DNA of 59,612 nucleotides, from positions 1-59,612 of the forward strand of contig CAXHJY010000919.1 of NCBI GenBank assembly GCA_964016885.1, read 5' to 3'. Origin of the DNA: Eledone cirrhosa. Its lineage: Eukaryota. The position numbers and the translations under genes were made by a program. The notes beneath the pieces were generated by a model, which was not told where the DNA came from, did no database searches, and worked only from the letters and a program-made list of their open reading frames with translations. This document shows positions 6,683-36,442 of this stretch, piece by piece; the first letter of the stretch is position 1, and each line of letters starts with the position of its first letter.

Positions 6683-7274
6683 TATATATATATATATATA
6701 TATATATATATATATATATATAAACATATATATATATATATATATATAAACATATATATATATATATATATATAAACACATATATATATATATATATATA
6801 TATATAAACATATATATATATATATATAAACATATATATATATATATATATATATATATATAAACATATATATATATATATATATATATAAACACATATA
6901 TATATATATATATATATATATATATATATATATATATATATATAAACATATATATATATATATATAAACATATATATATATATATATATAAACATATATA
7001 TATATATATATAAACACATATATATATATATATATATACATATATATATGATGGCTGCCCCCTCGTTATCGAGTATGGCCATTGCACGAGAATAAAAAAA
7101 AATATATATATATTTTTAATTAAAAAATAAAAATAATAATAATAATAATAATAAATAAATTTTAAAAAAAAAAAGAAGAAATATATATATATATATATAT
7201 ATAAAAGACGTAAAATAAGAAAATATTTTTAAAAAAATTTTTTAAAAATTTTTTACTTACTTACTTAAATTTTC

Positions 7275-7356
7275 ACTCCAACTAATTAGTTTCTGCAATG
7301 GGATAAAGACAGTTACATAATCCAACTGTCGAGAATTCATTGCGTCATCAGGGAGT
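7275..7356 (-). ncRNA. Hammerhead ribozyme, family B, inverted copy
   Basis: Reverse complement of 7646-7727. Confidence 0.8.
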
Positions 7357-7645
7357 CTATTCTCAGCTGAGTCTCCAGGCAATGCGCGGACACTGGCGGC
7401 TCATATAAAAATAATAATTCGGTAGAAAGAACAGCTAGGCGAGGACTGGATTCTATGTACTGAAATTCTCACTGCTTCCAGTCAAATGGCCGATTCTAAA
7501 GAATCAATCACGTGACATAGAGGCCAGTTAGAAGGAATGTGATGGTAAGATTCCAGTCCTCGCCTAGCTGTTCTTTCTACCGAATTATTATTTTTATATG
7601 AGCCGCCAGTGTCCGCGCATTGCCTGGAGACTCAGCTGAGAATAG

Positions 7646-7727
7646 ACTCCCTGATGACGCAATGAATTCTCGACAGTTGGATTATGTAACTGTCTTTATC
7701 CCATTGCAGAAACTAATTAGTTGGAGT
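7646..7727 (+). ncRNA. Type I hammerhead ribozyme with extended stem II, family B
   Basis: ACTCC-CTGATGA-C-GCAATG..GACAGTT/AACTGTC..CATTGC-A-GAAA-CTAATTAG-TT^GGAGT. Stem III is palindromic, the triplet is GUU, and there is a C-A mismatch at the base of stem II. Confidence 0.82.
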
Positions 7728-8180
7728 GAAAATTTAAGTAAGTAAGTAAAAAAATTTTTAAAAATTTTTTAAAAAATATTTTCTTATTTTACGTCTTTTA
7801 TATTATTGTTCTGCACCCTCCTGCATTGAACCACCTAGGTACTATGACATAACCTGTGTATTTGCTGGCATGGACGTGCATCTGTGCGCCTATGTTAGTT
7901 GATATATTAAATTATCTATATATATATATATATATATATATACATACACACATACATACACATACACTCACACATATACACCCACATACATTAATAACAA
8001 TAATAATAATAGCAATAATAATAATAACGACAACAACAATAATAATATACATATTTATATATATATACACACACACGCACGCACATAAGCATATCTACAC
8101 ACACACACACACACACACACACACACACACACACACACACACACACACACACACACACACACACACACGCGCGATAGCAA

Positions 8181-11100
8181 CTAACAGTGCTGCGATCGAA
8201 TGTGGCTTTTTAGCCCAGCCAATGATCTAAAATGTCTTGCACAGAGTCGGCAACCAAAACATTCACTGGGAATAGTCGGCTGTGGTTGGAGTTCGTGTAC
8301 TTTTGCATGTCGCTTGAGCCCTCCTGCTGATTTACATTCTCTACCACATGTTTGTCAAGCATGATGAGTAGCATCTCCAACAGCAGCCTGGTAGTCAGCC
8401 ACTGGTCTTACTTTATGACTGCGAAGATGACTTTCGAGTCCAGCTTTGCTTAGGCAGAGTCTCGCACAGACGCTGCATGTCAGCACCATAGGAGGACCCT
8501 CGCCGTCTGGAAATGCAACAGCAATGCCCTTCCTCACGTCCCGCTTTACTTTCTCGTGTGCGATTCGAGATGCCTCAAAGGCAACTTTTCCCCCATATAC
8601 AGTCTTTCTCCATTTATTACGATCAGCAGCAATATTTTCCCATGTATCAGCAGAGATATTAGCATCTTTCAGAGAGGCTTTCAAGGAATCCTTATACCTC
8701 TTTTTTGGTTTATGTGGCGGTCGTTTTCCTTTAACCAACTCTCCATAGAAGAGTTGTTTTGGTATTCTAGAATCCTTCATCCTGGCAAAGTGACCACTCC
8801 AACAGAGTCGTTGCTTAAGCACAAGAGCTTCTATACTGTCACACATAGAGCTTTCCAAAATCTCGACATCACTGATGTGGTCCCTCCAGTGAACATCATG
8901 GATCCGTCTGAGACACATATGATGGAAACGCTCCAATTGCTTAAGGTGGCGTCGATATGTGACACAGGTCTCGCAGGCATAAAGAAGACAAGAGAGTACA
9001 CATGCCCTGTATACCTTTACCTTTGTCCTCCTGCATATGTCTCACCGACCCCAGAATCGCCTTTCTAGCTTTCCGAAAGCATCACTTGCTTTCCTAATCC
9101 TAAGTGAGATTTCACTGTCAAGGTTGCCGTATCGATTGACAGTGCTTCCCAGGTAGACAAACTGATCAACCACTACAAGTCGTTTGCCATACACATAGAT
9201 GTTTGGTTCAGTGTACTGCTTACTAGGGGCAGGTTGGTACATGACGACGGTTTTCTTGAGACTGACAGTCAATCCTAGGGCAGTGCAAGCATCAGAAAAT
9301 GCATTCAAAATGTGCTGCATATCACTCTCTGTGTGCGCTACAAGATCGCAATCCTCTGCATACAAGAGGTCTCTTATGACTGATGTAAATACCTTTGTCT
9401 TCGCAGCAAAGCGCCTCATGTTAAATATGCTGCCTGAGGTTCGATATCGGATGTAAACACCATGCTCGCAATTCCTGAATGCAATACAGAAAACCATTGC
9501 AAAGTATATGGCAAACAGGGTCGGTGCTGGAATATCCCCGTTTCACTCCATTTTTTACTGAGATAGGCTCCGACATGTTACCTCCGACATTAACCCAAGC
9601 CTTCATGTCGTCATGGAAAGACCTAACTAAAGCAAGGAACTTATCAGGGCAACCAAGTTTCTGGAGAACCTTCCATAATGCATCTCTGTTGACAGTATCG
9701 AAAGCCTTTGTCAGATCGACAAAAACCTGATACAGATCCAAGCCTTGTTCAATGCACTTCTCCTGGAGCTGTCTAGCTGAGAAGATCATATCAGTAGTGC
9801 CGCGTCCAGCACGAAAACCAGATTGACTTTCAGGAAGGTCACAATCTGCAATGTGTGTCAGCAGACGGTCCAGAAGCACCCTACATAAAACTTTCCCTAC
9901 GACAGAAAGCAATGATATACCTCTGTAGTTCACACAATCATTCCTGTTACCCTTTCCCTTGTACAAGACCACCATTACTGCATCTCTCCAGTCCTCAGGC
10001 ACGGATTCATTAGCCCATATCCTTCCAAACAAAGAGTGAAGATGTTGCAGGAGTCCCTCACCACCATATTGTAGGAGCTCAGCATGTATGCCATCCATAC
10101 CTGGAGATCCTCCACTGTTCAGCTTCGAAATAGCCACTGCAACCTCCACAAGCGTCGGATGTTCTGCGAGAGCTACTTTCACAGGACTTTCCGGAATGAG
10201 ATTGAGGAAATCTTCACTGACGACAGACGGCTGATTCAAAAGATCATCAAAGTGCTCTCGCCACCTTCGTAGAATTCCCTGTGAGTCACGAAGAAGTTCT
10301 TTGCCATCCTTGCTGCGAATCGGTGTCACCAGAGAAGAAGACGGTCCATAAACCTCACGCAAGAGACTGTACAACAGCTTTGTGTTATTGCAATCAGACG
10401 CAGTTTGTATCTCACCAGCCTTCTCACTCCACCACTGATCCTTCATCTGAGAAAGACTCCGCCTAACACGTGATTTTACATCCCTGAGCTCCTCATGCAA
10501 CGTATTCCTCTCCTGTGGTTTTGCCGTCAAGTAGCGTGACAGAGCACGCCTCTTATCAGCCAACAAGTCTTCTATATGTACATCATTCTCATTAAACCAG
10601 TCCTGATGTTTTCTCTGCACCAATCCCAGAACACGTCTGCCTACATCATAAACCGACTTTTTAAGGGTCGGCCAATCCTCACCAAGATCTGCAGCCTGCA
10701 TCTCTTCTTCGAATGTCCTCTTCACATTTTTATCCTTAAGACGAGTAGCATTCAATCTTTTGGGCAGGGTAACACCAGGAGCCCGGATTTTACGTTTGGG
10801 GATTAGATTCACTTTTGCGCGTACCAGGCGGTGGTCCGTCCAGCACTCAGCTCCACGAAGAACACGAACACACTGCACATCCTGTCTGTCACGCATCCTG
10901 ACTAGGACGTAGTCCAAAGGATGCCATTCCTTAGATGCAGGATGCATCCATGTGGTCTTGAATTTGTTCTTTTGTTGGAACATGGTGTTGGCAACACACA
11001 GATCCAGCTCCTCACACATCTGCAGCAAGAGCATACCATTGCTGTTACACTTTCCCACCCCATACCTTCCGATTACATTCCATGTGTTAAAATCCCTACC

Positions 11101-35019: not shown

Positions 35020-35067
35020 TAAGCCGACAAGGCCTTGTTTCGCATTTGTTGAAGCTTATCAAGGCTA
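35020..35067 (-). ncRNA. Hammerhead ribozyme, U3-A8 variant, family E (weakened stem II)
   Basis: AGCC-TTGATAA-GCTTC(AACA)AATGC-GAAA-CAAGGCCTTG-TC^GGCT. Confidence 0.7.
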
Positions 35068-35320
35068 ACTACTCCGACCTGTCTACCGAGATCACTGATG
35101 TTATATTATTATAGAATTCTAGTAAATAATCAGGGGCTGATTATACAGAGCGGTTGTTGGTCAGGCAGAAATTAAAAATTAGAATTGGAGCTCTGAAATA
35201 GCAATATAATTTTTGATTTCTGCCTGAGCAACAACCGTTCTGTATAATCAGCTCCTGATTATTTACTAGGATTCTATAAGAATATAACATCAGTGATCTT
35301 GGTAGACAGGTGGGAGTAGT

Positions 35321-35368
35321 TAGCCTTGATAAGCTTTAACAAAAGCGAAACAAGGCCTTGTCGGCTTA
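35321..35368 (+). ncRNA. Hammerhead ribozyme with compensatory U3-A8 core, family E
   Basis: AGCC-TTGATAA-GCTTT(AACA)AAAGC-GAAA-CAAGGCCTTG-TC^GGCT. Triplet GUC; stem III is a 10-nt palindrome. Confidence 0.85.
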
Positions 35369-35834
35369 TCTCCCCTGTTTGCTGAGATCAAAATAGGTGA
35401 ATTTGTCAATACTCTAAAAAACAATAGCTTTCGGTCTTCAAAATGCTTTTAATTAAGAATAAAGTGTATTGCAAAATACATTATATATACATCCATATAT
35501 ATATATATATGTATATATATATATATATATGTATATATATATGTATATATATATATGTATATATATATATATATATGTATATATATATATGTATATATAT
35601 ATGTATATATATGTATATATATATATATGTATATATATATATATGTATATATATATATATGTATATATATATATATATGTATATATATATATATGTACAT
35701 ATATATATATATGTATATATATATATATGTATATATATATATATGTATATATATATGTATATATGTATATATATATATATATGTATATGTATATATATAT
35801 ATATATATGTATATATATATATATGTATATTATG

Positions 35835-36442
35835 TCAGGTCACCACTTGGTGCTACTGGTAACATGTATCCCAGTACAACCTGTCTCATGGTCGGGTCGT
35901 TGGCGACTAAACTGGCAACCCCACTAAGGTTTCTTGGTGAGGAGGGTGACTTTGGACATCCTGCAGGACTAAAAACAAAACCTGTCAAAGGGCAAAGGAG
36001 CTCTTAAGAGTCAATGGCCATCCAAAATCACCGGGAGAGATGACCCCTTAGCCTTTGTCAAGGCAGAATTCTAGGAGAAGGAAAACTCTGATATAACACC
36101 TGCAACCCTGATGGTATCCAATGATGTTGACTTGTTCTTCTTTTTGGTAAATATCATCTTGGTTAAGAGAGTGGGACTGGCTTTGTGCAGTGCCTTTGCT
36201 CACTATAAAAGCTTCACGGCACAGGCATTGCTTTGTATCTGGAGATCTCTCTGCACTTGTCATTACATGGTACCATGGGCCCAGCACTATGTGTCAATAA
36301 TTGTCACAAGTGTAGTGTTTGTACCAGAGTTTTCAAGTTGCTGGCTGGACTAAAAAGTCACACTCGTTCAGCGTATCGGTAGGGGTTCTCCTACATGGTT
36401 ATAAAGTAGTGGCCGTACTCGAAAACGAGTTGGCAGCCACCA
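35835..36442 (+). mobile_element. Full-length ~605-bp non-autonomous RTE derivative
   Basis: Reverse-complement match to 29086-29690 with the same termini. Confidence 0.88.

Follow-up and report, generated by a model that had tools for sequence, protein, structure and literature searches.

A candidate long-range RNA helix between the 5' untranslated region and the 3' end of RTE-clade retrotransposons, with a predicted pseudoknot beside its 5' arm

Bipartite derivatives of long interspersed elements (LINEs) are made by only a few LINE clades, "for unknown reasons" as stated in Kojima 2018 (PMC5786205). The available text of that paper makes no mention of pairing between the two parts or of a pseudoknot. 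The 3' terminal hairpin of stringent LINEs and of plant RTE/Au SINEs (short interspersed elements) is the subject of Nishiyama and Ohshima 2018 (PMC6007223), and RTE-1_MD serves in the available account for RNA-only gene insertion from templates flanked by its own untranslated regions (UTRs) at the 5' and 3' ends, improved by screening (PMC13708176). We analysed a stretch of 59,612 nt of Eledone cirrhosa DNA (contig CAXHJY010000919.1, hereafter the window) that holds a decayed RTE-clade LINE (the window RTE) and two kinds of non-autonomous derivatives, a 605-bp family and a shorter element (the mini). In these elements and in RTE families from other sources a segment of the 5'UTR was complementary to a segment just before the terminal hairpin, with fixed geometry and family-specific sequence, and both stems of a pseudoknot beside the 5' segment covaried. 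Judged from these sequence patterns, pseudoknot, long-range helix and hairpin with tail would together form one composite RNA signal, required by the RTE protein for the onset of reverse transcription, a reading to which we give a probability of about 0.62.

Complementary arms and a pseudoknot in RTE elements

All five segment pairs proposed in a preliminary description of the window were antiparallel complements in the sense strand of their elements (Table 1). The two arms of the window RTE formed 11 of 11 Watson-Crick pairs. Copies a and b of the 605-bp family were paired at 14 of 14 positions each, with two G-U pairs, as the strings quoted for this family had it; the third, copy c, departed from them with 13 of 14 positions paired (three G-U, one U-U). 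In the mini 11 of 12 positions paired, including one G-U, and one was A-C. When the 45-nt 3' piece was replaced by 500 dinucleotide shuffles and compared with the whole 5' part, the Watson-Crick run of the RTE was matched by none (28/500 with G-U allowed) and that of copy a by 4/500 with G-U and 13/500 with Watson-Crick pairs only. The mini helix by itself was not above chance in this test (170/500 with G-U, 500/500 Watson-Crick only). Between RTE and 605-bp family, own-family duplexes reached -21.8 and -20.3 kcal/mol and cross-family duplexes -10.2 and -12.7 kcal/mol. The restriction of pairing to the sense strand, also claimed earlier, applied only to the 605-bp family with its G-U pairs, while the RTE pair was strand-neutral. 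The image of a panhandle joining both RNA ends is a loose one. The 3' arm stops 26 nt short of the tail, and the 5' arm is situated within the 5'UTR, some 270 nt from the apparent 5' end and some 100 nt upstream of the start ATG of the open reading frame (ORF) at 11723. These 100 nt between 5' arm and ORF are simple repeats in the window RTE; most fetched RTEs have 250-400 nt of conserved 5'UTR there.

The preliminary description had taken positions 7049-7090 as the 3' end of the autonomous element, and they do behave as the window RTE's own end, although the assignment is indirect, with a single near full-length copy of the family available. The stretch from the end of the ORF (about 8180) to the terminal hairpin contains microsatellites and a foldback element of about 600 bp. 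We took 7049-7090 as belonging to the RTE because of the same orientation, the specific 11-bp match, the rank of the arm (1 of 23 for its own 5'UTR) and the mini, which joins both parts, and because another locus (L106) likewise has simple repeats inside its 3'UTR.

The family-specific match was also found in other RTE families, as had been expected. Of 120 listed homologs 34 were aligned, and loci were fetched from metagenome contigs (69) and genome contigs (9), with one more locus added. Thirty loci with long matches were inspected and seven dropped (L101 was a near duplicate; L104, L108, L120, L123 and L132 had no 5' region, and L129 had no 3' end), which left 23 loci in addition to the window RTE. 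With both ends anchored, 15 of 20 loci fetched from metagenome contigs had their own 3' partner at rank 1 and 19 had it at rank 1 or 2, and own duplexes outscored foreign ones with z -10.8 (0 of 100000 permutations, in which related loci are not independent of each other). The one clear failure was L127, in which a deletion took the ORF end and the 3' arm. Controls with shifted windows were null in six of seven cases (the other: 2266/100000). A test without 5' anchor, in which contiguous helices were sought between a fixed 22-nt probe and the whole upstream region, gave 44/200000, and a control probe 1307/20000. In 11 of 24 elements, and by arithmetic in L091, this test placed its best helix 22-28 nt downstream of one landmark or 9-12 nt downstream of a second one. 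Geometry was constant in most loci: 22-29 nt separated the end of the 3' arm from the tail, and the 5' arm began 22-28 nt downstream of the landmark. The 3' arms of L100 and L102 share sequence with the final ORF codons and so are under a coding and a pairing constraint at once. The arm sequences were mostly unlike one another, and the identity of the reverse transcriptase (RT) region among loci was 30-90% (median 47%). As the letters differ across such diverged elements while the match stays, the match must have been renewed many times.

Published consensus sequences, whose pairing was judged by eye only (Kojima 2018 supplement, PMC5786205; for ManaSINE1 the supplement of PMC4844689), pointed in the same direction as far as these supplements give them. 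RTEs with the pairing include BovB and elements of alligator, turtle and elephant together with their bipartite short interspersed elements (SINEs). Positions 282-291 of RTE-3_AMi pair with 3854-3863 (nine Watson-Crick pairs, one G-U), 177-185 of RTE-1_PSi with 3726-3734 (nine pairs, one of them changed from A-U to U-A relative to RTE-3_AMi) and 812-821 of BovB with 3797-3806 (ten pairs, with G-C in BOVA2 where BovB has A-U), so that compensatory changes occur in both comparisons, RTE-3_AMi with RTE-1_PSi and BovB with BOVA2. Like geometry was seen in RTE1_LA, RTE-11_AMi, SINE2_Gav, WALLSI1, 1A and 2, MonoRep87A and B, SINE-1_Pmo and MAR1, and bird ManaSINE1 consensuses retain a 7-bp version. 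After deletion the gap between the arms is just 2-6 nt in SINE-1_Pmo, MAR1, WALLSI1A and ManaSINE1. The feature is thus a family-specific covariation at fixed positions, seen in duplex tests and, by eye, in published elements.

The 80 nt upstream of the 5' arm are predicted to fold into an H-type pseudoknot, an addition to the helix described earlier. In 20 of 23 sequences its energy beat the mean of shuffles, by a wide margin in three and by a modest one in most. In an unedited alignment of 16 sequences 86.6% of cells were paired (S1 95.8%, S2 75%) and double changes numbered 16. None of 500 shuffles equalled the alignment in percent paired, in its count of double-change cells or in covariation score, a test in which kin sequences can outscore shuffles by relatedness, and slid registers scored far lower. 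A second group, BovB-like by motif, showed the same topology with different letters. Rfam has no matching family for the pseudoknot and gave no hit in window pieces or in 13 loci; over the window the hits listed were only microsatellite-driven miRNA noise. The ribozyme of RTE 5' ends that resembles that of hepatitis delta virus (HDV) is another fold, a nested double pseudoknot with a catalytic C, whereas the structure predicted here is a simple H-type pseudoknot in the middle of the 5'UTR. Visual inspection of seven loci (L088, L089, L096, L099, L109, L115, L131) showed near their 5' ends a stem of 3 bp whose loop, pyrimidine-rich and 7 nt long, resembles with it the P3/L3 hairpin of HDV-like ribozymes; six of the seven were scanned with Rfam (L088 left out) and gave no hit.

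Mutation might also have produced the match: template switching would repeatedly have copied an arm in inverted form, and the helix would do no more than bias the location of internal deletions and would not be required. Many arms are indeed perfect inverted repeats of 8-12 bp, deletion ends hug the arms, and the 5' inversion in the window mini indicates that such events occur. However, the position is fixed across families with the wide RT divergence given above, several helices contain bulges, wobble pairs or two segments unlike fresh copies, and the adjacent pseudoknot covaries too, which makes such a by-product improbable in our view.

A candidate composite signal and its alternatives

The proposed signal would work as follows. 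Family-specific segments in the 5'UTR and just before the terminal hairpin would pair in the sense RNA, and this helix would set the predicted pseudoknot beside the 3' hairpin and tail. The RTE protein would load on the composite signal and start target-primed reverse transcription, and the RT would then unzip the helix about 26 nt in. Transcripts lacking the 5'UTR would be poor templates, and the smallest mobile derivative would keep pseudoknot, both arms and hairpin, the loop between the arms being all that it loses. Held side by side, the arms may in addition promote this deletion via an RT jump. Under this model derivatives must keep both parts, which matches what is seen. The earlier suggestion of a selected long-range helix that explains the derivatives is supported by the family-specific match in other RTE families and by 7049-7090 behaving as the window RTE's own end; that the helix forms in the RNA and acts in retrotransposition is what we infer from these patterns. 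Extended to the animal RTE clade as a whole, the reading becomes an even bet: a split RNA domain, with a pseudoknot docked by a long-range helix on the 3' hairpin and repeat tail in a layout like that of the telomerase core, would provide a built-in check for full length, dictate the bipartite form of SINEs and supply a design rule of matching arms.

A selected cyclisation helix might instead regulate how the RNA is translated, how stable it is or when it passes from translation to reverse transcription, or form an RNA dimer in trans, and have no part in RT loading. Pairing between 5' and 3' ends plays roles of this kind in RNA viruses. The 5' arm does lie upstream of the ORF (by about 100 nt in the window RTE and 280-410 nt in fetched loci), and ribosomes would open the helix in L100 and L102, where the 3' arm overlaps the last codons. 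Against such control stand the non-coding SINEs transcribed by RNA polymerase III and the minis, which keep both arms and the pseudoknot; the former are untranslated and yet, in the published consensuses, keep the pairing. The position of the 3' arm is furthermore fixed to the priming tail and not to the stop codon. We therefore consider this alternative unlikely, though less so than the others discussed here.

Several observations weigh against the composite signal or against the helix itself. Tail starts, landmarks and window offsets were placed by eye after the sequences had been viewed, and the tail of L102 was extrapolated. Three of 23 loci (L088, L094, L103) had no 5' landmark and were left out of the anchored test, and L088 showed no helix in the test without 5' anchor (rank 20 of 24). 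In a loose RNAduplex comparison of 40 nt with up to 750 nt just 3 of 24 elements had their own partner at rank 1, related loci are not independent of each other, and by eye SINE2-2_ACar has only about 4 bp. Energies of the pseudoknot in single loci were mostly just 1-2 standard deviations below shuffles, S2 was paired in only three quarters of cells, and two pair-count measures were not above shuffles (48/500 and 429/500). The global fold lacked the helix in full-length copies a and c of the 605-bp family (probability 0.0), and enforcing it cost 5.4 (a) and 3.1 (c) kcal/mol in a model that cannot form pseudoknots. The antisense strand scored as well as the sense strand with both ends anchored (z -10.6), and internal G-U and A-C counts tied (14:16 and 11:10 in two counts).

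The folding results would fit a 5' arm that pairs locally with upstream 5'UTR; the long-range match would then be a coincidence or a product of the manual choice of anchors. In the lowest-energy fold of copies a and c some of the 5' arm is occupied by a competing local hairpin, and the weak loose duplex test points the same way. We considered a switch with a conserved local hairpin and rejected it, as the competitor was not conserved (13304/20000 permutations). The significance of the test without 5' anchor, with the best helix at landmark distance in about half of the elements, also speaks against local pairing, as does a consensus fold of the three 605-bp copies over their 3' 340 nt, which contained all 14 pairs with the helix abutting the terminal hairpin. 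The global fold contained the helix in the truncated copy b (0.98-1.0) and in the mini (mostly 0.8-0.98), and folding of whole elements was unremarkable (z -1.28 and 0.76). Of the explanations weighed here local pairing appears the least probable.

The strand results leave room for pairing that acts on the cDNA strand, or in second-strand synthesis or integration, and not on the RNA template. The equally strong antisense test and the tied G-U and A-C counts are what this would produce; the tie is also expected because most arms are pure Watson-Crick. In the 605-bp arms of a second organism (organism B, run X4) three near-fixed changes, C-G to U-G, U-G to U-A and U-A to U-G, keep pairing only under the rules of sense-strand RNA (17 weaker differences in this comparison are not displayed). 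One S1 position is G-U, G-C or A-U in 16 of 16 sequences, G-U in nine of them. These two observations and the G-U pairs of the 605-bp family favour the RNA strand, and the 5' arm lies far from the 5' junction; action on cDNA is in our opinion quite unlikely. That the pairing forms on RNA rather than cDNA is nevertheless only partly settled by such sequence data. The composite signal remains our preferred reading.

Elements and derivatives in the window

Feature coordinates are collected in Table 1. In the window RTE, Pfam found an AP endonuclease followed by an RT in a single ORF, and C2H2-like fingers at its C-terminus reach to about 8180. One homolog of 1185 aa spans the ORF end to end; residues 6-1184 of P0001 were covered by the window RTE at 56-66% in three frame blocks (tblastn). 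A microsatellite 3' tail follows the terminal hairpin. Flanks consist of simple repeats, in which no target-site duplication was readable. Our RT tree of the loci holds no named RTE reference; the assignment to RTE is based on UTR homology to RTE-3_AMi, RTE-1_PSi and AviRTE in published supplements.

Table 1. Features of the RTE element and its derivatives in the window
Feature	Position	Strand	Remarks
RTE-clade LINE, decayed, near full-length	7049..12100	-	Pfam EN and RVT_1; tblastn to P0001
Layout of the window RTE			5'UTR, one ORF (EN, RT, zinc fingers), long 3'UTR rich in repeats, terminal hairpin, tail
RTE ORF	8187..11723	-	two frameshifts (near 11170, 9540) and in-frame stops
Short 5'-region segment of the RTE	11996..12006	-	PMC5786205 text and supplement; motif recurs in SINE-like loci
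Predicted pseudoknot S1, 5' strand	11885..11890	-	
Predicted pseudoknot S2, 5' strand	11872..11875	-	loop of S1; only 4 bp in window copy
Predicted pseudoknot S1, 3' strand	11856..11861	-	landmark serving as 5' anchor
Predicted pseudoknot S2, 3' strand	11835..11838	-	
5' arm of long-range helix, RTE	11821..11831	-	
3' arm of long-range helix, RTE	7080..7090	-	ends 26 nt before tail
Terminal hairpin core, RTE	7062..7073	-	4-bp stem, 4-nt loop; tail begins 7053
Foldback element of ~600 bp in RTE 3'UTR	7196..7803	.	long inverted arms, TA-rich ends; self-BLAST palindrome 7274-7728, 90%
605-bp bipartite derivative, copy a	29085..29689	-	arms 29286-29299 and 29117-29130
Remnant of the ORF's last zinc finger (copy a)	29152..29226	-	in loop closed by helix; translation resembles C-termini of window ORF and P0001
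605-bp family copy b, 5'-truncated	28008..28357	-	arms 28214-28227 and 28042-28055
605-bp family copy c	35836..36443	+	arms 36226-36239 and 36398-36411
Mini derivative of the window RTE family	28705..28973	-	5'UTR piece 28757-28911, 3' end 28705-28746
Arms of the mini	28776-28787 and 28735-28746	-	

The foldback element in the 3'UTR is likely a later insertion, to judge from its sequence; it could be MITE-like (miniature inverted-repeat transposable element) or an assembly foldback. Large inverted repeats were also found by self-BLAST at 52701-56392, 15776-17048, 13359-19170, 1310-6291 and 34927-35481. They are mostly at least 99% identical (86% for 34927-35481), some wrap LINE-like or other coding fragments, and they could be foldback elements or artefacts of long-read assembly. 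LINE-like coding fragments occur at 48597-50686 and 23107-26777, and 48753-49643 is 25% identical to the RTE homolog.

The 605-bp derivative consists of the 5'UTR, the last zinc-finger codons and the 3' end of a related RTE, with the interior deleted. It was amplified as a unit of its own, with three window copies at 94-97%. In a single mapping of sequencing-run contigs, on which all copy-level figures are based, the family had 12407 contig matches in run X1 and 3846 in X4, and the whole element was found in one X10 contig; X5 and X10 gave just 8 and 1 contigs and were not interpreted. An Rfam scan of 29085-29695 showed neither a tRNA nor a 5S match that would point to an RNA polymerase III head (no search aimed specifically at tRNAs was made). 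The first 190 nt of the family (29500-29689, 35836-36025) do not match the window RTE, and in run X4 depth over 29526-29672 was about five to ten times that of most of the remaining element; this head may be shared with other families. It contains a short motif, without Rfam hit, that we assume to be reminiscent of the HDV-like P3/L3 hairpin. The mini, present in one window copy, joins an 88% copy of the 5'UTR of the window RTE to a 97.5% copy of its 3' end. Its positions 28914-28973 are an inverted piece of upstream RTE 5'UTR (93% to 11963-12022), similar to a 5' inversion by twin priming.

The 3'-hairpin pattern had no match in viral contigs, and the RTE alignment found no relatives there. 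Scanning genome contigs for the 5'UTR motif gave mostly Ceph-SINE-like repeats in animal-like contigs of two metagenome-assembled genome (MAG) records, which lacked the pseudoknot or helix region and were set aside; searches of these two records gave just the short motif and distant LINEs (19-35% identity). The repeats (L002-L025, L027) are abundant in these contigs, one of them with a tandem 123-bp tail part. Contigs C3-C19 (L059-L087) of G002, a bacterial MAG record, carry dozens of head-to-tail intact LINE copies of 1158 aa at about 6.5 kb spacing, like a telomeric array from an animal host.

Comparison with known systems

The elements themselves are of a known kind; the long-range helix and the pseudoknot appear to be new here, although a prior description is possible. 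In the literature searched, including the available parts of PMC4324840, PMC3747384, PMC11240701 and bioRxiv 10.1101/2022.11.04.512097, there was no report of either (subscription papers, patents and some supplements were outside the search). The 605-bp family and the mini correspond to the bipartite RTE derivatives presented in Kojima 2018 (PMC5786205), a 5'UTR piece with the 3' end and a deleted interior, and unlike those the 605-bp family additionally keeps the last zinc-finger codons. The composite signal would answer the puzzle raised there, why RTEs differ from most LINEs in spawning derivatives and SINEs in which a 5'UTR piece is retained along with the 3' end.

Stringent LINEs and plant RTE/Au SINEs likewise have a small hairpin before a microsatellite tail, which is thought to be read by the RT in the available accounts (PMC6007223; Grechishnikova and Poptsova 2016, PMC5135761). 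That signal is local to the 3' end, whereas the one proposed here would become complete through a 5'UTR segment as far as 4.7 kb off. If true, this would be a LINE recognition signal made from both ends of a 3-5 kb RNA, and it would predict which bases must match, and the minimal template length, for gene writing with RTE templates with matching arms.

R2 belongs to a different clade and has a different endonuclease from RTE. Its 5' pseudoknot is bound by the R2 protein, and no base-pairing between its two RNA pieces is known to us. The R2 protein likewise makes use of structured RNA from either end, with 3'UTR recognition and a 5' HDV-like ribozyme according to the available text of PMC13708176, and R2 also yields bipartite derivatives (PMC5786205).

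The flavivirus, Ty1 and telomerase systems are similar to the proposed arrangement in layout only; no homology is claimed, and Rfam gave no relevant match. In flaviviruses and Ty1, cyclisation helices pair 5' and 3' regions over a long range and bring a polymerase-binding structure to the start of copying. In the telomerase RNA core a repeat template has a pseudoknot and a closing helix next to it, as hairpin and repeat tail of RTE elements would have the pseudoknot and the long-range helix.

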